DNA of 64,000 nt, taken from positions 2,059 through 66,058 of the forward strand of contig NZ_MEDO01000011.1 of the NCBI RefSeq assembly GCF_001724815.1, given 5' to 3'. The position numbers and the translations under genes were made by a program. Below the pieces are notes generated by a model that made no database searches, was not told where the DNA came from, and saw only the letters and a program-made list of their open reading frames with translations. Source of the stretch: Arenimonas sp. SCN 70-307 (GTDB taxonomy: Bacteria > Pseudomonadota > Gammaproteobacteria > Xanthomonadales > Xanthomonadaceae). This document shows, in pieces, positions 7,177 through 62,295 of this stretch (position 1 is the first letter of the stretch; every line of letters begins with the position of its first letter).

Positions 7177-8647
7177 GCACCTGGAAAATCACCCGGCCCT
7201 CGTAGGGCTCGCCCCGCGGCTCAAGCTGGAAGCCCAGCGCCGCCGCGCGTTCGACGAGCTCGGGAAACAGGGCCTGCTTGGTGACCCACAGCGCGTCTTC
7301 GCCCTCGAGCAGTTCGGCCGCGAAGCCCGAGTCGTATTCGGCGCCGAATCGCTCGCGCGGCACCGGCTCCAGCGACACCTTCTCGACGGCCACGCCCATG
7401 TGCAGGTGCAGGCCGTAGCGGGCCATGTCCTCGACGAAGACGACCTCCTCGACGCGGTGGTCCACGCGCGACGAGAGCTCGTCCGCCCAGCGGCCGGCGT
7501 CCTTGTTGGTCGGCCACAAGGCCGTGCCCAGGCGCAGCGCCAGCAGCGCCACCACCGCCAGCACCCACCAGCGCGTGCGCAGCAGCCCGCGTCCTTCGGC
7601 ATGCCACTGCCGCGCCACCAGCACCGCCAGCGGCAGGAACAGCGGCAGCACGTACAGCGGCAGGCGCGAGCGCGCCAGGCAGAACACCAGCAGCGGCAGC
7701 AGCACCCATAGCCACAGCGCGAGCAGCGGCGCATCGGCGCGTCGCGCGGCGGCCTCGCGCCAGCCGCGCAGGCGCGCCAGCCCGCCGCGCAGGGCGCGCC
7801 AGGCCACCGCGGTCCACGGCAGCGTGCCCAGCAGCAGCGTCGGGCCGTACACCACCAGCCAGCCGTACCACTCGGGGTTGCGGTGCAGCTGGTCGCTGGC
7901 GATGCGCGCGACGACTTCGGTTCCGAGGAAATACGACAGCAAACCCTCGTGGCGCAGCACCACCACCAGGTACCAGGGCAGGGCCAGCAGCAGGAACAGC
8001 AGCGCGCCGGTCCACCAGGCGCGGACGGCGCGGCGCTCGGGCGCGGGCGCCAGCCACTGCATCGCCACCACCGACATCAGCGGCAGCAGGGCCGGCGGAC
8101 CCTTGGTCATGAAGGCGATGGCGAAGCCTGCCCACATCAGCAGCAGCCAGCGGCCGGCGTGTTCGCGCGGGCCGAAGCGTGATTCGATCCAGGCCCACAT
8201 CGCCAGTCCCTGGAAGGCGGCCAGCAGGTAGTCGGTGGTGATCAGGTTGGCCGCGCCGAAAGGCAGCAGCATGGTGGCGTAGGCCAGGGCCGCGGTGGTT
8301 TCGGTGCCGGGCTGCAGGCGCCGGGCCACGCGCCAGGCCAGCCACACGCAGGCCAGGTAGGCCAGCGCCGCCGGCAGGCGCGCCGACCACGGGTGCGGGC
8401 CGAAAGCGGCCACGCTGGCGGCGATGGCCCAGTAGGTGACGGGCGGCTTGGTCCAGTGCCCGGTTTCGTGGTGGCGCGAGAGGTCGACGAAGTTGCCCGT
8501 GTCGAGCATCGTCAGCGCCACGTTGGTGTAACGGCCTTCGTCCGGGTCCCAGAGGGCGCGCGCCCCCATCAGCCCGAAGGCCAGCAGCAGCGCCACCACC
8601 GCCACCCGAAAGCCGGGCGAGGACAGCGTGGCGCGCCAGCCGGACAC
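7160..8647 (-). CDS. ArnT-like glycosyltransferase family 39 membrane protein
   Basis: N-terminal LWDPDEGRYTNVALTMLDTGNFV motif; polytopic; GTG start. Confidence 0.75.
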   Translation of the reverse strand: MSGWRATLSSPGFRVAVVALLLAFGLMGARALWDPDEGRYTNVALTMLDTGNFVDLSRHHETGHWTKPPVTYWAIAASVAAFGPHPWSARLPAALAYLACVWLAWRVARRLQPGTETTAALAYATMLLPFGAANLITTDYLLAAFQGLAMWAWIESRFGPREHAGRWLLLMWAGFAIAFMTKGPPALLPLMSVVAMQWLAPAPERRAVRAWWTGALLFLLLALPWYLVVVLRHEGLLSYFLGTEVVARIASDQLHRNPEWYGWLVVYGPTLLLGTLPWTAVAWRALRGGLARLRGWREAAARRADAPLLALWLWVLLPLLVFCLARSRLPLYVLPLFLPLAVLVARQWHAEGRGLLRTRWWVLAVVALLALRLGTALWPTNKDAGRWADELSSRVDHRVEEVVFVEDMARYGLHLHMGVAVEKVSLEPVPRERFGAEYDSGFAAELLEGEDALWVTKQALFPELVERAAALGFQLEPRGEPYEGRVIFQVLRAPP

Positions 8648-47891: not shown

Positions 47892-49151
47892 ATGGAATTG
47901 CTCAATGCGCTGTACGAGCAGCTCGCCGCAAGGCCCTGGCTGCTCAGCCTCCTCGCCGTCGTCGCCCTGTTGCTGCTGGCCTGGCTGGCCGACCAGCTGA
48001 CCCGCCGCCTGTTGCTGCGATTGCTGGTGCGGCTGGTGCAGGCCTCGCCGGTGAAGTGGGACGACGCCATCCTCGGCCGCGGCGTGATCAAGCGGCTCTC
48101 GCGCGCCGTGCCGGCAGTGGTGGTCTACCTCGGCGCCCCGCTGCTGCCCGACCTTCCCGAGGGCCTGCTGACCGTGGTGCGCAACGTCGCCGCCGCGTAC
48201 GTGGTGGTGACGGTGGCGCAGGCCGCCTCGGCCCTGCTTTCGAGCCTGCAGGACATCTACGAGGGGCGCGACCCGGTGCGTGCCCGCAACCGGCCGATCA
48301 AGGGCTACCTGCAGGTGGCCAAGATCGTGCTGTTCGTGCTGGCGGCGGTGCTGGTGATGGCGGTGCTGGTCGAGCGTTCGCCGCTGCTGCTGCTCTCGGG
48401 CTTCGGCGCCATGACCGCGGTGCTGATGCTGGTGTTCAAGGACACCATCCTGTCGCTGGTGGCCAGCGTGCAGATCCAGTCCAACGACATGGTGCGCGTG
48501 GGCGACTGGATCGAGATGCCCAAGTACGGCGCCGACGGCGACGTGATCGACGTGGCCCTGCACACGGTGAAGGTGCAGAACTGGGACAGGACCATCACCA
48601 CCATCCCCACGCACGCCTTGATCGCCGACAGCTTCCGGAACTGGCGCGGCATGAGCGAGTCGGGCGGACGGCGCATCAAGCGGGCGCTGCCCATCGACCA
48701 GGGCACGGTGCGCTACCTGACGAACGAGGAACGCGAGGGCCTGTCGCGCTTCGTGCTGCTGCAGCCCTACCTGGAGAAGAAAGCGGCGGAGCTGGCGGCG
48801 TGGAACGCCACCCAGGAAGGCCGCGCGCCGGTGAACCTGCGCCGGCTGACCAACCTGGGCACCTTCCGCGCCTATGCCCGCGCCTACCTGCAGGCGCACC
48901 CGGGCATCCACCAGGGCATGACCCTGCTGGTGCGGCAGCTGCCGCCGGGGCCCGCGGGCCTGCCGATCGAGGTGTACTGCTTCACCGCCACGACCGCCTG
49001 GGCGGAGTACGAAGACATCCAGTCGGACATCTTCGACCACCTGCTGGCGATCCTTCCCGAGTTCGGCCTGCGTGCCTACCAGCAGCCCTCGGGCGCCGAT
49101 GTCGCCGGCCTGTGGGAGGGCCTTCAGGCCCGACCGGCCAGTCGGGCCTGA
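47892..49151 (+). CDS. MscS-family mechanosensitive channel
   Basis: TM helices, then the DTILSLVASVQIQSNDMVRVGDWIEM MscS core. The last ~13 codons are encoded by a REP palindrome. Confidence 0.82.
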   Translation: MELLNALYEQLAARPWLLSLLAVVALLLLAWLADQLTRRLLLRLLVRLVQASPVKWDDAILGRGVIKRLSRAVPAVVVYLGAPLLPDLPEGLLTVVRNVAAAYVVVTVAQAASALLSSLQDIYEGRDPVRARNRPIKGYLQVAKIVLFVLAAVLVMAVLVERSPLLLLSGFGAMTAVLMLVFKDTILSLVASVQIQSNDMVRVGDWIEMPKYGADGDVIDVALHTVKVQNWDRTITTIPTHALIADSFRNWRGMSESGGRRIKRALPIDQGTVRYLTNEEREGLSRFVLLQPYLEKKAAELAAWNATQEGRAPVNLRRLTNLGTFRAYARAYLQAHPGIHQGMTLLVRQLPPGPAGLPIEVYCFTATTAWAEYEDIQSDIFDHLLAILPEFGLRAYQQPSGADVAGLWEGLQARPASRA

Positions 49152-51889: not shown

Positions 51890-53194
<1,305 letters not shown>

Positions 53195-53199
53195 ACGCG

Positions 53200-53231
53200 G
53201 TCCCGGCCCCGGGTCGCCCCGGGGCCGGGAC
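53200..53231 (+). terminator. GC-rich hairpin after aceA (weak T-tract)
   Basis: GTCCCGGCCCCGG-gtcg-CCCCGGGGCCGGGAC followed by AATTTGA. Confidence 0.4.
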
Positions 53232-53234
53232 AAT

Positions 53235-54320
53235 TTGACCCAATCCACTATTCACTGGCGCCGCCTTGGGTACACTCGGCCTTCTATAGGGCTGGAATCC
53301 ATCGTGGCGCCAACCAAGTTCCAGGGTCCCGTCGTGCCTCCGCAAGAGGGCGACGCAGGGCCCCAATTGCCGTCCCAACTGGCCCCGGAGGAATTCCGGG
53401 TGCTGGCGTCCGCGGGCGTCAGCCGCGCGGTGTTGCCCGGCGAGGAGCTGTTCCGGCGTGGCGATGCGGCCCAGAGCATGTACCTGATCGACACCGGCGA
53501 AGTGCGCCTTTGCTTCGACGAAGGCCTGGCCGACAAACAGCTCGGCCCGGGCCAGTACTTCGGCGAACTGGCCGTCTTCATCGGCCGCCACCAGCGTTTT
53601 GCCCGCGCCGTGGCCGAAACGCCGGGCGTGCTCTACGAAGTCACCCAGGAAGCCTTCCAGGCCCTGCTTGATCGCGAACCGGCGCTCGTCGCCCGCTTCA
53701 TGCAGCGCAGCTTCGCCTATCTCGTGGCCGGCGAGCACCAGCTCGTGCAGAGCCTGCGCCGCCGCAACGAAGACCTGCTGCAGACGCTCGACACCCTGCG
53801 CCAGACCCGCAGCGAGCTCACCGTCGCCCAGCAGCTGGTGCGCAGCGACGACCTGACCGGCCTGGCCAACCGCCGCGGCCTTTACCGCTACCTCGACGAA
53901 CTCGGCCGCCAGCCGCTGGGCGGCCTGCGCCTGGCCCTGCTGCTGGTGGACGTGGACCACTTCAAGGCCATCAACGACCGCAGCGGCCACCTGGCCGGCG
54001 ACGCCGCCCTGCGCGCGGTGGCCGAGGAAGTGCGCCGCCTGGCCGGCCCGCTCGAGCTGCCCTGCCGCCTGGGCGGCGACGAATTCGCGCTGGTGCTGCG
54101 CGTGGCCGACGAGGGCGAACTGGCCAACCGCGCCCTGGGCCTGCTTTCCGCCGTGCGCAGCCTGCGCCTGCCCAGCCTGCGCGAGCACCGGCTGAGCGTG
54201 AGCATCGGCGGTGCTTTCTGCGCCGACCCCGGCGGCTGGGCCGCCTGGTACAGCGAGGCCGACCGCGCGCTCTACGCGGCCAAGCGCCACGGCGGCGACG
54301 CCTGGCGCCTTGACGAATAA
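53235..54320 (+). CDS. cyclic-nucleotide-binding domain + GGDEF diguanylate cyclase (start uncertain)
   Basis: cNMP-binding signature ..YFGELAVF..RFARAVAETPGVLYEV.., then RLGGDEFALV. No RxxD I-site five residues upstream (GPLELPCRLGGDEF). Confidence 0.82.
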   Translation: MTQSTIHWRRLGYTRPSIGLESIVAPTKFQGPVVPPQEGDAGPQLPSQLAPEEFRVLASAGVSRAVLPGEELFRRGDAAQSMYLIDTGEVRLCFDEGLADKQLGPGQYFGELAVFIGRHQRFARAVAETPGVLYEVTQEAFQALLDREPALVARFMQRSFAYLVAGEHQLVQSLRRRNEDLLQTLDTLRQTRSELTVAQQLVRSDDLTGLANRRGLYRYLDELGRQPLGGLRLALLLVDVDHFKAINDRSGHLAGDAALRAVAEEVRRLAGPLELPCRLGGDEFALVLRVADEGELANRALGLLSAVRSLRLPSLREHRLSVSIGGAFCADPGGWAAWYSEADRALYAAKRHGGDAWRLDE

Positions 54321-54384
54321 TTCACTGTCCGGCCCCCGCGGACCCGTGCGTTCACCCGGATAGGAAGGCCCACCGGTCCGCTCG

Positions 54385-57018
54385 ATGGAGAGTTTCGACA
54401 CACGCACGCCCAGTCGTCCCGACGCGCCGGCCGTAAGGCCGATGCTGCGGGCCGTGCTCGTGTGCGACATCGTCGACTCCACCGCCCTGGTCGAGCAGCT
54501 CGGCGACGCCCGCGCGGCCGTCTTCCTGCAGCGCCACGACCAGCTGTTGCTGCAGGCCATGAAGCTTTGCCACGGCCAGCTGGTGGACAAGGCCGACGGC
54601 GTGCTGGCGCTGTTCGAGCGGCCGATCCAGGCCCTGGACTTCGCGCTGCGCTACCAGCGCGGCCTGCACGAACTGGGCAATGCCGAGGGTTTCGCGCTCA
54701 AGGCCCGCACCGGCATCCACGTCGGCGACGTGATGACCTGGGCCAACCACCCGCGCGACGTCGCCGCCGGCGCCAAGCCCTTCGAGGTCGAGGGCCTGGC
54801 CAAGCCGGTGGCCGCGCGGCTGATGACCCTGGCCCTGCCGGGCCAGATATTGATGTCGGGCATGGCCCAGAACCTGGCCCAGCGCGCGGTGGGCGAGCTG
54901 GGCGAGCGCGCCGGCCGGCTGCGCTGGCTGATGCACGGCCGCTACCGCTTCAAGGGCGTGCCGGCGCCGATGCTGGTGCACGAAGTGGGCGAGCCCGGCA
55001 TCGCGCCACTGCGTGCGCCCGATTCCGGCACCAAGGCCTGGCGCGAGGTGCCGCTGTGGCGGCGCCCGCCGATGCTGGCCGCCGAGGCCATGCTGCTGCT
55101 GGTGCTGGCCGGCGGCGTGCTCCTCACCACCTTCCGAAGCGAGCCGGCCATCGCCTTCGCCGAGCGCGACTGGGTGGTGGTGGCCGACCTGCAGAACCGC
55201 ACCGGCGAGATCATGTTCGACGACTCGCTCGACCTCGCGCTGCGCGTGGGCCTGGAGCAGTCGCAGTACGTCAACCTCTACAGCGACCTGCAGGTGGACC
55301 GCGCCCTGCAGCGCATGCAGCGCGAAGGCCAGCCGCTTGACCGCCAGCTGGCCATCGAGCTGGCGCTGCGCGAAGGGGCGCGCGCCGTCATCCTGCCCAC
55401 CATCGCCCAGGTCGGCGGCGTGATCCGGGTGAGCCTCGAAGTCATCGATCCCAAGACCGGCGTCACCGTCTACAGCGAAAGTGCCGATGGCCGCGGCGTG
55501 GAAAGCGTGCTGCCCTCGCTCGATTCCGCCCTGGCCGACGTGCGCGGGCGCCTGGGTGAAACCATGGCGGCGGTGTCGACCGACCGCGTGGCGCTGGAGA
55601 AGGCCACCACGCCCAACCTCGAGGCGCTGCGGGCGTTCTCGCTGGGACTGCGGGCACGAACCGACGGCCGCGCCCGCGACGCCGAGGCGCTCTACCGGGA
55701 GGCCGTGCGGCTCGACCCGGGGTTCTCCATGGCCTGGTTGCGCCTGGCCTTCATGCGTTTCGTCGAGGGTGACGAGGACGGCACGCGCAAGTACCTGGCC
55801 GAGGCGCAGGCGCATCGCGACCGCCTGACCCGCCGCGAACTGCTCTTCATGGAAGGCGCCGAAGCCACGCTCGACGACGCGCCGCGCGCGGTCGAGCGCC
55901 TGCGCCTGCTGGCCCAGCTCTATCCCGACGATTACCGCGCGCGCTACAACGTTGCCTACTTCGCCCACTTCGACCTGCTCGACAGCGCCCAGGCGCGCGA
56001 GGCCATGGCGGGCACCGACGTGCCGCAGAACGCCCAGCGCCCGTCGGCGGTTTACATGGCGGCCACGGCCGAACTGGCCCTGGGCGACGCGCCGGCCGCG
56101 ATCGCCTTGTTCGAGAAGGCCGTGACGCTGGGCAGCCGCGGCCACCTGCGCGACTACATCGATGCCCACGCCGCACTGCGCCAGTACGACCTGGCGCGCC
56201 GCGTGGCCGCGCTGCAGACGCCCGTGGGGCTGCCGGCGCAGGACATCGAAAGCCGCCTGTTCGAGGCCAGCCTGCCGCTGGACCAGGGCGACTGGGCCGG
56301 GGCGCGGTCGGCCATGGCGCGGCTGCGCGCCGACGCCGCCGAAACCGGCGTGAACGAGAACGTGATTGGAGAGCTCGACATGATGGCCCTGTCGCTGCGC
56401 GTCTACGCGCCCGACGAGGCCTTCGCCGCGGACCTGCGCCGCTGGGCCGATGACCAGCGCACGCGCTTCGGCCAGGCCAACGCCATGCTCCAGCGCGAGT
56501 TCATCTTCCGCTTGCTGGCGGGCGCGTGGATGGCGGCGCATACCGGCGACCTGGCGCTGGCCGGCGAGCTGGTGGCGGCGGTGGGCGAGCATCCGCAGCT
56601 GCGCCGGTACCCGGCCACGGCCGGCATGGCGCGCATCGCGAAGGCGGAAATCGCCCTGGCCGAGGGGCGGCCGGCCGAGGCCATCGACCTGCTGGCCGAC
56701 GACCACGCCAAGGGCCAGGGGCTCTACTTCGGCCGCTCGGTGCTGATGCGTGCGCTGGCCGCCGCGGGCGACCGCAAGCAGGCGGCCCAGGTGGCGGCGT
56801 GGCTGTCGAAGGAGCGCGCGCGGGCTTTCGGCGAGCCGACCAATGCCTTGGGATGGCAGCTGGCCAACGTGGCCGAAAGCACGCTGGCGCTGCATGCGCT
56901 GGCCCGGCTGGCCGAACCGGGTTCGGCGCAGGCCGTGCAGGCGGCACAGGCCTTCGAAAAGGCCTGGCCGAAGGGTGAGTCGCTGCCGGAAACCGTCCGG
57001 CGCGACGCCGGGCCCTGA
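54385..57018 (+). CDS. class III adenylate/guanylate cyclase domain - TM - periplasmic domain - TPR-like repeats ('putative peptide modification system cyclase' type)
   Basis: VLVCDIVDSTAL..KADGVLALF..RTGIHVGDV cyclase blocks; one TM segment (MLAAEAMLLLVLAGGVLLTTF); helical-repeat C-half. Confidence 0.8.
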   Translation: MESFDTRTPSRPDAPAVRPMLRAVLVCDIVDSTALVEQLGDARAAVFLQRHDQLLLQAMKLCHGQLVDKADGVLALFERPIQALDFALRYQRGLHELGNAEGFALKARTGIHVGDVMTWANHPRDVAAGAKPFEVEGLAKPVAARLMTLALPGQILMSGMAQNLAQRAVGELGERAGRLRWLMHGRYRFKGVPAPMLVHEVGEPGIAPLRAPDSGTKAWREVPLWRRPPMLAAEAMLLLVLAGGVLLTTFRSEPAIAFAERDWVVVADLQNRTGEIMFDDSLDLALRVGLEQSQYVNLYSDLQVDRALQRMQREGQPLDRQLAIELALREGARAVILPTIAQVGGVIRVSLEVIDPKTGVTVYSESADGRGVESVLPSLDSALADVRGRLGETMAAVSTDRVALEKATTPNLEALRAFSLGLRARTDGRARDAEALYREAVRLDPGFSMAWLRLAFMRFVEGDEDGTRKYLAEAQAHRDRLTRRELLFMEGAEATLDDAPRAVERLRLLAQLYPDDYRARYNVAYFAHFDLLDSAQAREAMAGTDVPQNAQRPSAVYMAATAELALGDAPAAIALFEKAVTLGSRGHLRDYIDAHAALRQYDLARRVAALQTPVGLPAQDIESRLFEASLPLDQGDWAGARSAMARLRADAAETGVNENVIGELDMMALSLRVYAPDEAFAADLRRWADDQRTRFGQANAMLQREFIFRLLAGAWMAAHTGDLALAGELVAAVGEHPQLRRYPATAGMARIAKAEIALAEGRPAEAIDLLADDHAKGQGLYFGRSVLMRALAAAGDRKQAAQVAAWLSKERARAFGEPTNALGWQLANVAESTLALHALARLAEPGSAQAVQAAQAFEKAWPKGESLPETVRRDAGP

Positions 57019-57048
57019 GCGGGCGCAGGGTCCGCCCGGGCCGGCGGC

Positions 57049-57318
57049 TTACTCCGGCAGCTGGAAGCTGATCGGTTCGAACGGCGCGCGCGCGGCCAGC
57101 AGGCGCTGGCGCAGGGCGGCGCGCGATCGGCGGATGGCGTCCTTCGAGGCCAGGCGCGGGATCGGTGCGGTCGGCAGCGTGGCCGTGTCCGGGTCCTGGG
57201 TGCCCAGCGATTCGGTGGCGGTCTTCGGGTTGGCCATGAACGCGGTGCGGAAGGCGTCGTCTTCGGCGAGACGATCGAGCAGCGCGTCGACGGTGGCTTC
57301 GGAAAGCGGGTTGGACAC
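57049..57318 (-). CDS. NHLP-related putative RiPP precursor peptide (89 aa)
   Basis: GTG start after GGGGAA. The leader (M)SNPLSEATVDALLDRLAEDDAFRTAFMANPKTATESLG resembles nitrile-hydratase-leader-peptide/Nif11-type leaders. It lies between the cyclase and the SagB-type dehydrogenase. Confidence 0.7.
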   Translation of the reverse strand: MSNPLSEATVDALLDRLAEDDAFRTAFMANPKTATESLGTQDPDTATLPTAPIPRLASKDAIRRSRAALRQRLLAARAPFEPISFQLPE

Positions 57319-57436
57319 GGGTGTTTCCCCTGGAGTGGCACCAATGGGTGCGGGGCGAGTCTAGCGGCTGGTCCGCGGGCTTGTCAGGGCTTGGGGCAGG
57401 CCCCAGGCTTGCCCGGCCGGACCACAGGGACCCCCG

Positions 57437-58615
57437 ATGCAGCTCAGGCGATGCGCCCACCTGATGGTGGAACTGGAAAGCGAGCCGCGCTTTGATTTCA
57501 ACGACCTGCTCGCCGGTGGCGACGGCCTGGACCGGCGCGCGGCCTGGCTGGCGCATGCGCCGCACCTGCCCGGGCCGGTGCCGGTGACGCTGGCGATGCT
57601 GGCGGTGCTCGAGGCGGTGGACGCGGAGGCCTGGCAGCCGCGCGCGGACCTCGAGGCGCGCTTCGGCGCGGAGAAGATCGCTGCGCTGGTGGACGCCGGA
57701 TTGCTGCTGGACCCCTCGCCCACGCCCGCCGCCGCGGCCGACGCCGCCGCGCGCGACGTGGCCTGGTGGCCGCCGGCGCTGCTGGCGCAGTCGCGCGGGG
57801 CCTGGCGCGACGTGGACGTCGAACGCCGCGGCGAGGAGGGCCTGCGGCCCAGCGCCCGCGCCCTGGTCCAAGCCTTCGGCCCGGCGCCCACGCCGTCGCC
57901 GCGTCGCTGCGACGACCAGCCCCCGCTGCCGCTCGCGCCGGCGCGCCGGACCGAATTCGACGCCCTGCTGCAGGCGCGCCGCACCTGCCGCAACTTCGAC
58001 CCGCAGGCCGCGCTCGATGCCGGGCGCTTCGCCACGATGATGCAGCGGGTCTGGGGCGCACTGGGCACGCACGAGCTCGCGCCCGGCGCCGTGGTGGTGA
58101 AGAAGACCAGCCCGGCGGGCGGCGGCCTGCATGCGGTGGAGGCTTACGTCCTGGTGCAGCGGGTCGAGGGGCTGGCGCCCGGCCTCTACCACTACCTGCC
58201 GATGGAGCACGCGCTCGAGCCGCTGCAGACGATGGCGGCGGGCGAGGCCGGCGGCTGGGCGCACCGTTTCGTGGCCGGCCAGGCCTGGTTCCGCGACGCG
58301 CCGGTGCTGGTGGTGATGGTGGCGCGCTTCGACCGCCTGTTCTGGAAGTACCGCCGCCATGCCAAGGCCTGGCGCGTGGTGCACCTGGACGTGGGCCACC
58401 TCTCGCAGACCATGTACCTCTCGGCCACCGAGCTGGGCCTGGGCGCCTTCGTCACCGCGGCCATCAACGACGACGAGATCGGCGGGCTGCTCGGCCTGCC
58501 GCTGCTGCGCGAGGGCGCGATCGCCCTGGTCGGCTTCGGCCCGCGCGCGGCCACGATGACCCACCGCGAACTCACCGACCTCGACCCCCTCCCGGCCAGA
58601 ACACGGCCCCTGTAG
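57437..58615 (+). CDS. SagB-type (nitroreductase-fold) putative peptide maturation dehydrogenase
   Basis: The C-terminal half RRTCRNF..SPAGGGLHAVEAYVLV..YHY..VHLDVGHLSQTMYL..GLGAF is typical of SagB/ThcOx-like FMN dehydrogenases. Confidence 0.78.
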   Translation: MQLRRCAHLMVELESEPRFDFNDLLAGGDGLDRRAAWLAHAPHLPGPVPVTLAMLAVLEAVDAEAWQPRADLEARFGAEKIAALVDAGLLLDPSPTPAAAADAAARDVAWWPPALLAQSRGAWRDVDVERRGEEGLRPSARALVQAFGPAPTPSPRRCDDQPPLPLAPARRTEFDALLQARRTCRNFDPQAALDAGRFATMMQRVWGALGTHELAPGAVVVKKTSPAGGGLHAVEAYVLVQRVEGLAPGLYHYLPMEHALEPLQTMAAGEAGGWAHRFVAGQAWFRDAPVLVVMVARFDRLFWKYRRHAKAWRVVHLDVGHLSQTMYLSATELGLGAFVTAAINDDEIGGLLGLPLLREGAIALVGFGPRAATMTHRELTDLDPLPARTRPL

Positions 58616-58634
58616 GAGGGCCTTCAGGCCCGAC
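58611..58634. repeat. single REP unit TGTAGGAGGGCCTTCAGGCCCGAC
   Basis: Same 24-mer as 49111-49134 with 1 mismatch. It supplies the TAG stop of the dehydrogenase gene. Confidence 0.8.
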
Positions 58635-58639
58635 CCGCC

Positions 58640-60148
58640 TCACCCCGCCGCACCGCGGTCGAGCAACCGATACCCGATTGCCTCCGCCACATGCCGCGTG
58701 GCGATCGCTTCGACGCCCTCGAGGTCCGCCAGCGTCCGCGCCACCCGCTGGATCCGGTGCAGCGCGCGCGCCGACAGTTGCAGCTGCTCGATGGCGCGCT
58801 CGAGCAGCTGGCGGTCATCGGGCGCGAGCGCGCAGTCGCGCTCGGTGCCGGCCTGGTCGAGCTGGGCGTTGGGCACGCCCGCGCGGGCCAGCTGGCGCTC
58901 GCGCGCGACCAGCACGCGGGCGCGCACGGTGGCGGTGGATTCGCCGCGCGGCGCGTCGGGGCGCAGCTCGGAGGGCGGCAACCGAGGCACCGCCAGCTGC
59001 AGGTCGATGCGGTCGAGCAGCGGGCCCGAGAGCTTGCCGCGGTAGCGCGCCACCGCCTCGGCGCTGCAGTTGCAGCGCCCGCTCGGGTCGCCAGCCCAGC
59101 CGCAGGGGCAGGGGTTCATGGCGGCCACCAATTGGAAGCGCGCAGGGAATTCGCTCTGGCGCGCGGCGCGCGAGATCACCACGCGGCCTGACTCCAGCGG
59201 CTGGCGCAGGGTGTCGAGCGCGTGCCGCGACCACTCGGCCAGCTCGTCGAGGAAGAGCACGCCGTGGTGCGCCAGCGAGATTTCGCCCGGGCGCGGGTTG
59301 CCGCCGCCGCCCACCAGCGCCACCGCGCTGGCCAGGTGGTGCGGGCTGCGGAAGGGGCGCTGGCGCCATCGCGCCAGGTCCAGCCCCTGGCCGCTGACGG
59401 AATGCAGGGCCGCTGTTTCCAGCGCCTCGGCCTCGCTGGGCTCGGGCAGCAGGCCGGGCAGGCGCGAGGCCAGCAGGGTCTTGCCGCAGCCGGGCGGGCC
59501 GATGAAGAGCAGGGCATGCGCGCCGGCCGCCGCCACCTCCAGTGCGCGCCGGCCGGCGGCCTGGCCGCGCACGTCGGCCAGGTCGGGATAACGCGTGGCC
59601 GCGGCTTCGATGTCGGCGGTTGCGGCAGGCAGCACGGACTCACCGCGCAGGTGTGAGCACACCTCCAGCAGCGTGCGCGCCGCGAACGCGCGCCCGCCCG
59701 CGGCCAGCGCCGCCTCGGCGGCGTTCGCCGCCGGCACCACCAGCGCCCGGCCTTCGCGTGCCGCCGCCAGCGCCGCCGGCAGCACGCCGTCGACGGGCTT
59801 GAGCTCGCCGGTGAGCGCCAGCTCGCCCAGCACTTCCACTTCGCCCAGCGCCGCCACCGGCAGCTGGCCGCTGGCCGCCAGCAGGCCCAGGGCGATGGCC
59901 AGGTCGTAGCGGCCGCCCTCCTTGGGCAGGTCGGCCGGCGCGAGGTTGACGGTGATGCGCCGCTGCGGGAACTCGAACTGCGCATTGCAGATGGCCGAGC
60001 GCACGCGCTCGCGGCTCTCGCGCACCGCCGTGGCCGGCAATCCCACGAGGGTGAAGTTCGGCAGGCCGCCACCCAGGTGCGCTTCCACGCGCACCGCCGG
60101 CGCGTGCACGCCCACCCGGGCGCGGCTGTGCGCCAGCGCCAGGTTCAC
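58640..60148 (-). CDS. comM: YifB/ComM family Mg-chelatase-like AAA+ ATPase
   Basis: FIGPPGCGKT Walker A, CPCGW zinc-like motif; 502 aa. Confidence 0.88.
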   Translation of the reverse strand: MNLALAHSRARVGVHAPAVRVEAHLGGGLPNFTLVGLPATAVRESRERVRSAICNAQFEFPQRRITVNLAPADLPKEGGRYDLAIALGLLAASGQLPVAALGEVEVLGELALTGELKPVDGVLPAALAAAREGRALVVPAANAAEAALAAGGRAFAARTLLEVCSHLRGESVLPAATADIEAAATRYPDLADVRGQAAGRRALEVAAAGAHALLFIGPPGCGKTLLASRLPGLLPEPSEAEALETAALHSVSGQGLDLARWRQRPFRSPHHLASAVALVGGGGNPRPGEISLAHHGVLFLDELAEWSRHALDTLRQPLESGRVVISRAARQSEFPARFQLVAAMNPCPCGWAGDPSGRCNCSAEAVARYRGKLSGPLLDRIDLQLAVPRLPPSELRPDAPRGESTATVRARVLVARERQLARAGVPNAQLDQAGTERDCALAPDDRQLLERAIEQLQLSARALHRIQRVARTLADLEGVEAIATRHVAEAIGYRLLDRGAAG

Positions 60149-60434: not shown

Positions 60435-60617
60435 GCGCGGGACTCCGGCGGGGGTGTGGCCACGATGCGCCGGCCGGGGCGCGGTGTCCGTAGGAAATCC
60501 CCTTCAGGGCCCACAAGAATTCCATGCGCGCGCCGAGCAATCAATCGCCGCGCGCCGGCCAGGGTTCAGGTGCTCTCCCCCGAGCGTCCCCTTCCCACGT
60601 CCCTGGAGGCCCTGCCC

Positions 60618-62295
<1,678 letters not shown>

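Follow-up and report, generated by a model that had tools for sequence, protein, structure and literature searches.

Gene organization of the locus

The window analysed here is a stretch of 64,000 nucleotides (nt) from Arenimonas sp. SCN 70-307 (contig NZ_MEDO01000011.1, positions 2,059 to 66,058 of the forward strand). It carries a locus in which a nucleotide cyclase, a small peptide related to the nitrile hydratase leader peptides (NHLP) and a stand-alone SagB-type dehydrogenase are encoded side by side. Together with a neighbouring gene for a protein with cyclic nucleotide-binding (cNMP) and GGDEF domains, the locus is best explained as a four-gene signalling module rather than as a conventional antibiotic cluster of a ribosomally made and post-translationally modified peptide (RiPP). 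The cyclase, a receptor-type class III nucleotide (probably guanylate) cyclase of 877 amino acids (aa), is encoded at 54385..57018 on the plus strand and matches the NCBIfam hidden Markov model TIGR04510 at 830.2 bits (cut-off 400), its residues 19-835 lying on model positions 3-813. The peptide, 89 aa long with a GTG start, is encoded on the minus strand at 57049..57318 (TIGR04509, 58.5 bits, cut-off 34). The dehydrogenase, a flavin mononucleotide (FMN) enzyme of 392 aa, follows on the plus strand at 57437..58615 and covers positions 1-378 of the 380 in TIGR04511 (457.6 bits, cut-off 240); the SagB domain model TIGR03605 also matches it at 110 bits.

An earlier sequence-only reading of this DNA had called these three open reading frames (ORFs) and named their families; the coordinates were recovered, and all three assignments lie above the NCBIfam cut-offs. 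It had also named aceBA and comM as the flanks of a three-gene system. The flanks are as described, but the reading overlooked a gene at 53235..54320 on the plus strand, between aceA and the cyclase gene, whose product matches Pfam cNMP_binding (aa 65-147) and GGDEF (aa 204-354) as well as the NCBIfam GGDEF model. This gene ends 64 bp before the cyclase start. Conservation of its product begins at about aa 20-45, and the start at 53235 is tentative. Its product resembles XC_0249 (see below) and is a diguanylate cyclase predicted to act as cGMP receptor and effector. Counting this gene, the lineage of the window has a four-gene module.

The gene for the peptide runs towards that of the cyclase and away from that of the dehydrogenase, whose start is 118 bp away. 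Its GTG codon is preceded by an AGGGGA motif resembling a Shine-Dalgarno sequence. About 40 nt upstream of the start lies a sigma-70-like promoter match (57358..57387, minus strand; CTGACA-18-TAGACT), a consensus match only, which is the single one in the 5.9 kb of positions 53000-58900; the number expected in shuffled sequence was 0.0. The small ORF, on whose conservation the sequence-only reading had let its proposal hang, is unbroken in every one of the 33 related loci that are complete, and an independent gene caller predicts it as well.

The cyclase and its cNMP-GGDEF neighbour

In Xanthomonas campestris, the 886-aa protein XC_0250 combines a class III cyclase domain with tetratricopeptide repeats (TPRs) and was reported to synthesize cyclic GMP (cGMP) in vivo and in vitro, and XC_0249, with cNMP and GGDEF domains, was reported to bind cGMP and to raise the synthesis of cyclic di-GMP (c-di-GMP) (PMC3770947). 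Mutants of this pair are reduced in biofilm and virulence (PMC3770947; An et al., 2013, EMBO J), and adjacent homologous pairs occur across xanthomonads according to the same study. Residues D41, D71, L73, A150, L157 and A161 of XC_0250 were required by mutagenesis; its TPR part was labelled an 'uncharacterised' domain, and no input signal was named (PMC3770947).

From sequence comparison, we conclude that the window cyclase is orthologous to XC_0250 and the protein encoded upstream of it to XC_0249. The genes are adjacent and in the same order, a class III cyclase with TPRs is paired with a cNMP and GGDEF partner in both, the cyclase lengths are 877 and 886 aa, and TPR matches begin at aa 413 in the window protein, as in XC_0250. 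Compared by numbering only, the window cyclase has D41, D71, A150 and A161, with L73 and L157 conservatively replaced by V73 and M157. Its matches in the PDB are the class III cyclases Ma1120 and Rv1900c. The suggestion that this 'cyclase' acts on nucleotides and is not a peptide cyclase proved sound, and the product in the window would probably be cGMP. The label 'uncharacterised' put on the system suits the chemistry of the peptide and dehydrogenase but not the cyclase and cNMP-GGDEF pair (PMC3770947).

The catalytic domain of the cyclase occupies about aa 19-205 (nt 54439-54999, plus strand) and is followed by a single transmembrane (TM) segment at aa 228-251 (nt 55066-55137, plus strand), the one hydrophobic segment in the protein, with positive charges before it and no second TM candidate. 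The cyclase domain must be cytoplasmic, and therefore the C-terminal part of 620 aa is predicted to be periplasmic. This putative sensor (aa 255-877, nt 55147-57015, plus strand) consists of an LpoB-like region, recognized by a weak match ahead of the repeats, and the TPRs.

For the cNMP domain, the best PDB match is 5h5o_A (87 bits), whose numbering fits all residues of XC_0249 named in the Xanthomonas study, i.e., F73, E90, L91, H98, V142, N145 and E146 (PMC3770947). In the alignment to 5h5o_A, four of the five cGMP-contact residues are kept in the window protein (F73, E90, H98 and E146), and its GGDEF motif is intact. The cNMP-GGDEF and cyclase pair is kept in 25 Arenimonas loci and in five distant soil loci. 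A homologue search with the XC_0249 cNMP sequence, taken from PDB 5h5o, returned short fragments of at most 64% identity, none from Xanthomonas. Unlike the window locus, the Xanthomonas pair was described with no mention of a TM helix, a peptide or a dehydrogenase (PMC3770947), and no report linking XC_0250/XC_0249 to either of the latter two was found in the searchable literature.

The peptide and its relatives

The peptide is divided into a conserved, leader-like N-terminal helix region (aa 1-40), with the segment LLxKLxxDDxFRxxxxxNPxxAxxxLG, and a variable C-terminal 'core' (aa 40-89). Its family profile weakly matches nitrile hydratase alpha and Os1348/6LK7, the 6LK7 match having E=0.009. 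The model of the canonical NHLP leader, TIGR03793, gives 21 bits, below its cut-off of 50.9, and that of the Os1348 family, NF038399, gives 24.9 bits (cut-off 40); by these scores the window peptide is a relative, not a member, of the Os1348 family. A cleavage motif of the Gly-Gly type is lacking, as the 89 aa contain no GG. The sequence-only reading had stressed that the peptide has no Cys. This is correct for the window, where the C-terminal part is also not rich in Cys, Ser or Thr as the core of a thiazole/oxazole-modified microcin (TOMM) would be, but it is no family trait. Among Arenimonas relatives, type A peptides, including that of the window, have no Cys, and type B peptides carry an inserted GAWxC and one or two Cys; Cys occurs, once or twice, in 21 of 33 Arenimonas homologues. 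The Lys of an 'LPSK' motif was considered as a universal modification site and rejected; it is frequent, but about a third of the family has another residue in its place. Three type B ORFs (loci L020, L023 and L026; loci of the comparison carry the prefix L) could have an N-terminal extension of about 22 aa (MTFDHSEQAVEKYFQISEEQGNPA...) if an upstream ATG is used.

The system has a parallel in cluster OS3 (Os1348-Os1351) of Pseudomonas sp. Os17, which has been partly studied and likewise pairs an NHLP-clan small protein of about 85 aa with a SagB-type dehydrogenase, with neither sagC/sagD nor YcaO (PMC7726476; PDB 6LK7). OS3 differs in that it adds a GNAT protein and a HEXXH peptidase, adjoins a resistance-nodulation-division (RND) efflux system, encodes a dehydrogenase of 650 aa and has no cyclase or TPR partner, its studied phenotype being antibiotic activity (PMC7726476).

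The leader-and-core pattern of the peptide is that of a precursor, and deletion of Os1348 in Pseudomonas lowers antibiotic activity (PMC7726476). Both points would fit a conventional RiPP product, a bacteriocin or antibiotic, with the dehydrogenase tailoring a secreted peptide and the TPR protein switching production on in response to some other cue, in the manner of the LAL/AfsR-like STAND-TPR regulators that adjoin biosynthetic gene clusters. We regard this explanation as unlikely, although it deserves to be taken seriously. A lone tailoring enzyme is unusual for such a pathway, and the output in Xanthomonadales feeds a dedicated relay from cGMP to c-di-GMP.

The dehydrogenase

An AlphaFold (AF2) model of the dehydrogenase built from 121 homologues has a mean confidence (pLDDT) of 91.8. 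Foldseek places ThcOx first, over about 400 columns, followed by BmdC, 3eo7 and McbC. The motifs RRTCR (the FMN-binding RRxxR), SPAGGGLH (PxGGxLH) and ARFDRLFWKY (Lys-Tyr) align to ThcOx; across 27 diverse members, 29-48% identical to the window enzyme, no change is seen at R181, R185, R297, R300 or W303-K304-Y305, and RRTCR and FWKY do not vary either in these 27 or in 121 close relatives. Because the FMN-binding Arg and the Lys-Tyr motifs of SagB-type enzymes are kept, the dehydrogenase looks catalytically competent. It shares the FMN nitroreductase fold and the motifs RRxxR, PxGGxLH and FWKY with the azoline oxidases SagB, McbC and ThcOx of TOMM, cyanobactin and thiopeptide pathways. Unlike those pathways, it stands beside no YcaO cyclodehydratase, either locally or in distant loci, and no gene linked to it could form an azoline substrate. 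The earlier view that it 'must be doing something different' was a fair inference, though all azoline-oxidase motifs, including FWKY, are retained.

Among the more distant Foldseek matches is the cyclodipeptide oxidase AlbAB (PDB 8uc3, 9exv). Enzymes of this type are likewise nitroreductase-fold flavoenzymes, and they dehydrogenate amino-acid C-alpha/C-beta bonds with no YcaO step. They differ from the window enzyme in that the match is distant (E ~1e-6), they form heteromeric filaments, they have no RiPP recognition element (RRE) and they act on a diketopiperazine instead of a ribosomal peptide.

The protein falls into an N-terminal domain with a winged helix and further helices (aa 1-170, nt 57437-57946, plus strand) and the nitroreductase-fold catalytic domain (aa 171-392, nt 57947-58612, plus strand). 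In the N-domain, strands at 2-5, 10-14, 36-40 and 48-50 are followed by helices at 52-60, 69-76 and 78-86 in the AF2 model, with pLDDT >90. In an earlier model this domain resembled, by Foldseek, the radical-SAM RiPP maturase TigE (8vpo) with a probability of 0.99 and E 0.076; the N-terminal region of TigE is one that we take to be an RRE. No Pfam model matched the domain. Since the E-value is 0.076 and no sequence model detects an RRE, the domain is called RRE-like, not a proven RRE. The overall architecture is like that of ThcOx, which is fused to N-terminal RRE-type domains, and an RRE-like domain would also be in keeping with a conventional RiPP enzyme. A Tat signal on the dehydrogenase was considered and rejected, the conserved RR at positions 4-5 lying in a beta-strand with no hydrophobic region.

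With a threshold of E<1e-30, an exhaustive profile search gave at least 532 representative clusters (50% identity), and no fewer than 150 of these match over the full length; the names of ten cluster representatives were only Chiayiivirga, Dokdonella and Lysobacteraceae. In the literature, no description of the chemistry of the peptide or the dehydrogenase was found.

A hypervariable island shared by sensor, peptide and dehydrogenase

A genome scan with very specific patterns yielded 36 loci, 34 of them from Arenimonas or other Lysobacteraceae. All complete loci of the clade share the gene order LysR-aceB-aceA-cNMP-GGDEF-cyclase-peptide (minus strand)-dehydrogenase-comM, and the closest relative of the window locus is that of A. 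caeni. Along this conserved order, mean pairwise protein identity is 0.90 for aceA, 0.81 for cNMP-GGDEF and 0.75 for the cyclase catalytic domain; it is 0.50 for the sensor domain, 0.50 for the peptide and 0.63 for the dehydrogenase. In sliding DNA windows between genomes whose flanks are 92-96% identical, identity drops sharply to 45-65%. The drop starts just after the TM helix, spans the peptide gene and ends near residue 166 of the dehydrogenase; the nitroreductase domain then shows a partial recovery and comM a full one. The sensor, the peptide and the dehydrogenase N-domain therefore form one contiguous hypervariable block, which by sliding DNA identity (about 0.9 outside, 0.45-0.7 inside) extends over about 55300..57950 of the window, with no strand of its own.

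Substitution rates follow the same outline. Between types, dS is 0.6-1.0 in the island and 0.18-0.36 in aceA, cNMP-GGDEF and the cyclase catalytic domain, with comM at 0.31-0.75; one cNMP-GGDEF value in this comparison was an alignment artefact and was ignored. The corresponding dN/dS is 0.44-0.78 in the island against 0.06-0.18 in all four flanking segments, and within-type pairs show the same tendency. Peptide types A and B do not track the aceA phylogeny. In partial Mantel tests that controlled for aceA, peptide distances correlated with those of the sensor (r=0.53, p=2e-4) and the dehydrogenase (r=0.63, p=2e-4), and sensor distances with those of the dehydrogenase (r=0.42, p=2e-4); no such relation linked the peptide to the catalytic domain (r=-0.07) or to cNMP-GGDEF (r=-0.03). 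The joint fast evolution suggests, without proving it, that an oxidized peptide is the input of the pathway.

Similar blocks are found in agrBDC and comQXP, the pherotype loci by which Gram-positive bacteria carry out peptide quorum sensing, where the recognition part of the modifying enzyme, the peptide and the sensor of the receptor are hypervariable together. By analogy, the island resembles these loci in shape, as the output domain and the neighbours on either side of the variable block are conserved. There is no relationship between the protein families, however, and the hosts are Gram-positive in one case and Gram-negative in the other; the receptor is a histidine kinase there and a nucleotide cyclase here, and the likeness of the window locus, which has no identified exporter, is one of genes alone.

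Two other explanations touch on the island. Hypervariability would also suit the arms race of a bacteriocin, but the variable part of the partner protein is its sensor, which co-varies with the peptide, and this would not be expected if the sensor answered an unrelated cue. It is also conceivable that there is no functional link at all. The peptide and dehydrogenase would then be an independent two-gene unit, and the sensor would vary by environmental exposure with its neighbours hitch-hiking. Within Arenimonas the arrangement is simply syntenic, and linkage alone could yield the Mantel correlations. We give this view very little credit, the least of any explanation considered, on account of the divergent loci described below.

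In Arenimonas daejeonensis (L034, 7001-10690), single-segment matches cover only aa 16-490 of the cyclase query and aa 1-228 of the dehydrogenase, and the peptide is intact; the cyclase and dehydrogenase genes may be disrupted.

Partner proteins at distant loci

A scan of metagenomes added 80 loci with dehydrogenases about 30-45% identical to that of the window; with L035 and L037, 85 copies were available. The dehydrogenase neighbour was a soluble protein with cyclase, AAA_16 (of the STAND class of signal transduction ATPases) and TPR domains in 25 copies, a cyclase-TM-TPR protein in 16, a Ser/Thr kinase-TM-TPR protein in two (L035, L049), a TIR-TM-TPR protein in one (L066) and a TM-TPR protein cut by a contig end in six. 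One copy, on Sinorhizobium pSymA, had only an S8 protease beside it, one had no partner within at least 2.5 kb on both sides, and 33 lay on contigs too short to inform. The partnerless copy comes from a locus with a complete cassette, to which it adds another dehydrogenase gene. A TPR signalling protein thus adjoins the dehydrogenase in 50 of the 52 informative copies outside Arenimonas, in both gene orders, and in 45 of the 53 metagenomic copies with enough flank a small ORF of the TIGR04509 kind is found no more than 900 bp from the dehydrogenase. At the genomic level, the association of dehydrogenase and peptide with TPR signalling proteins is practically obligatory. With a TPR neighbour at 50 of 52 copies across divergent loci, chance adjacency is hard to uphold; against the absence of a functional link also stand the low identity of these dehydrogenases to that of the window, the four partner architectures and the two gene orders.

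As N-terminal output, the TM and TPR module of TIGR04510 may carry a cyclase, but also a Ser/Thr kinase or a TIR domain. The constant core is the peptide, the dehydrogenase and the TPR module, and the output domain is interchangeable. The model TIGR03903, 'TOMM system kinase/cyclase fusion protein', matched only the kinase domain of the L035 partner, and below cut-off. This family is presumably associated with YcaO-containing TOMM clusters, a context of NHLP-type peptide modification; its members are large kinase/cyclase signalling proteins like the TPR partners but have a different architecture. The match is one more point in favour of a conventional RiPP product. So is the Sinorhizobium pair of peptide and dehydrogenase, which occurs with an S8 protease and no TPR protein, and which would equally suit a two-gene unit with no link to a sensor.

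That Sinorhizobium locus (S. meliloti KH35c pSymA, L037) has its TIGR04509-like ORF at 8146-8616 on the plus strand, upstream of the TIGR04511 dehydrogenase. The ORF has an in-frame N-terminal extension resembling a Tat signal (MRRRNFVASTAAFMAASAIANA); a signal peptide was seen in none of the other members examined. Its neighbours are the S8 subtilisin-like protease and a TP_methylase-family protein.

Genes for export, immunity and leader removal, which a conventional RiPP pathway would call for, do not recur. Among 146 other neighbour ORFs at 28 distant loci, only housekeeping genes recurred, and no exporter, peptidase, YcaO or radical SAM gene did so; the flank genes in the window likewise include no YcaO, radical SAM, lanthionine synthetase, ABC transporter or C39 peptidase. 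The absence of local YcaO, radical SAM and exporter genes, as first noticed from the letters, hence extends well beyond the window.

In soil loci of the scan, aceA is 84% identical to that of the window and the cyclase and dehydrogenase about 42%, and the order aceBA-cNMP-GGDEF-cyclase-peptide-dehydrogenase is retained. Tandem cassettes of cyclase, peptide and dehydrogenase, two per locus, occur in L045, L047, L101, L110 and L111. In L101 and L111 both cassettes lie behind one cNMP-GGDEF gene, which suggests that several inputs converge on a single receptor for cGMP; one cassette of L111 contains a pair of peptide ORFs.

The distant peptides also differ in their C-tails. Those beside soluble partners (L048, L052, L053, L060, L065, L073 and L099) end in a TM-like, aromatic-rich hydrophobic tail, e.g., FAFWLFVILLAA, and these peptides also open with a beta-strand-like 'RISINLTP' motif ahead of the NHLP-like helix. 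Another subgroup (L055, L057, L059 and L069) has a long Lys/Pro-rich tail.

The soluble partners make up about half of the total, and STAND proteins are typically activated through ligand binding to the TPR arm. An intracellular redox or metabolic relay may therefore be considered, in which the flavin dehydrogenase senses, its turnover following the supply of oxidant or substrate, and the small helical protein transduces to the signalling protein through its oxidation state or its complex with the dehydrogenase, with no secretion at all. The missing linked exporter, the peptide without a signal sequence and the stable folded dimer that Os1348 forms inside cells (PMC7726476) agree with such a relay. 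We nevertheless judge it distinctly unlikely. In the window, the TPR module lies across a single TM from the cyclase domain, out of reach of a cytoplasmic peptide; a universal redox cue would not be expected to bring about pherotype-like diversification; and the very hydrophobic C-tails beside soluble partners suggest membrane association, not a free cytosolic transducer.

The variety of outputs, which includes TIR, Ser/Thr kinase, Pycsar-like class III cyclase and STAND NTPase domains, recalls systems of biological conflict with phages or other bacteria. In such a system a hypervariable TPR sensor would detect an invader and fire its cyclase, kinase or TIR effector, and the peptide and dehydrogenase would act as toxin, antitoxin or co-factor. 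The elevated dN/dS of the hypervariable sensor, the tandem paralogous cassettes and domain-level matches to the ThsB, PD-T4-6 and PycC models lend themselves to this explanation, which we nonetheless hold to be highly improbable. The window cyclase, peptide and dehydrogenase match none of the families in PADLOC-DB 2.0, and the matches of the cNMP-GGDEF neighbour and of some distant partners are to generic cNMP, TIR, kinase and cyclase domains only, as are those to ThsB, PD-T4-6 and PycC. Membership in any PADLOC defence system was accordingly rejected. Moreover, the chromosomal site is fixed between aceBA and comM across the clade, unlike a mobile defence island, and the Xanthomonas orthologues control biofilm and virulence.

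A possible ligand of the TPR sensor

For the four-gene module, the reading that we favour is that the peptide, once oxidized by the dehydrogenase, is the ligand of the TPR sensor; its chance of being right is considerable, if somewhat short of even. The 89-aa peptide would be transcribed from its own promoter, and the RRE-like N-domain of the dehydrogenase would capture it through its conserved N-terminal region. The nitroreductase domain would then oxidize the variable C-terminal part, the expected change being a dehydrogenation of the -2 Da type and not azoline oxidation; C-alpha/C-beta dehydrogenation, as in nitroreductase-fold cyclodipeptide oxidases, is a possible chemistry. The oxidized peptide, or a fragment of it, would be the cognate ligand of the LpoB-like and TPR sensor of the single-pass cyclase. 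Its binding would switch on the cytoplasmic class III cyclase domain, and the cGMP formed would be bound by the neighbouring GGDEF protein through its cNMP domain and raise c-di-GMP synthesis, as reported for XC_0250/XC_0249. Sensor, peptide and RRE-like domain would diversify together into specificity types, in analogy to pherotypes. We infer the oxidation of the peptide, its binding to the sensor, its arrival in the periplasm and the nucleotide product at this locus.

Several observations weigh against this proposal. As for the relay, Pfam Guanylate_cyc gives the cyclase a mere 11 bits and marks it as very divergent, cGMP as the product leans on a single study of a Xanthomonas protein (PMC3770947), and N145 of XC_0249 is Gly in the window protein, the N145-E146 diad there reading G-E. 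The Xanthomonas comparison covers only the cyclase and cNMP-GGDEF proteins. As for the peptide, it has no signal peptide although the predicted place of the sensor is the periplasm, neither the window locus nor the 28 distant loci include a linked exporter or leader peptidase, and no conserved candidate modification residue was found in the family. Os1348 is a folded helical dimer for which no modification was demonstrated (PMC7726476). With about half of the partners being soluble and of the STAND type, sensing there would be cytoplasmic, and since these partners are so common, the logic of a secreted pheromone cannot be general. Lastly, linkage confounds the co-variation, which may stem from a shared recombination history of three elements that lie side by side; one recombination block could suffice.

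A broader version of the proposal is more doubtful and is put forward tentatively. In it, a receptor guanylate cyclase of the Gram-negative Xanthomonadales would be switched on by its specific ligand, a self-encoded ribosomal peptide oxidized by a flavoenzyme; this RiPP-type pheromone with pherotype-like alleles would supply the missing input of XC_0250/XC_0249. The NHLP-like peptide and the stand-alone SagB enzyme would be a portable ligand-generating cassette for TPR receptors with cyclase, kinase, TIR and STAND outputs, relying on a YcaO-independent dehydrogenation of an undescribed kind.

Significance

The three catalogued families and the cyclase/GGDEF pair with its characterized orthologue are already known. 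Within the searchable literature, what appears to be new is the tie between the 'peptide modification' trio and a cGMP to c-di-GMP pathway, together with the swapping of output domains and the pherotype-like island. Bacterial cGMP signalling has few worked examples, and the stimulus for the TPR domain of the Xanthomonas cyclase has been missing from the account since 2013; the locus gives a testable candidate encoded next door. It also offers an entry point to a large SagB-type family that works with no YcaO and is almost always wired to signalling proteins, not exporters. Should the peptide prove to be the ligand, the module would count among the rare peptide signalling systems of Gram-negative bacteria, with specificity types built in, and would bear on how biofilm and virulence are controlled in the plant pathogens and the opportunistic human pathogens of this order.

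Neighbouring genes

Upstream of the module lie genes for LysR, aceB and aceA; downstream follow comM/YifB, a 478-aa ORF, glnB and speE. An Rfam scan of positions 52-61 kb of the window found no RNA family, and no intrinsic terminators were found at the locus. In the window, only 24 bp separate the stop of the dehydrogenase from that of comM (58616-58640). In A. caeni (L001, 11177-11624) and several relatives, about 450 bp more lie between the two stops, which appears as a gap of zero identity in the sliding comparison. The 478-aa ORF (60524-61960, plus strand), flanked by comM and glnB, is matched by neither Pfam nor NCBIfam models and occurs at the same position in at least 11 Arenimonas loci with 47-76% identity. 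Further upstream, beyond LysR, an MscS-type mechanosensitive channel gene (47892-49151, plus strand) is ordinary and unrelated to the module.

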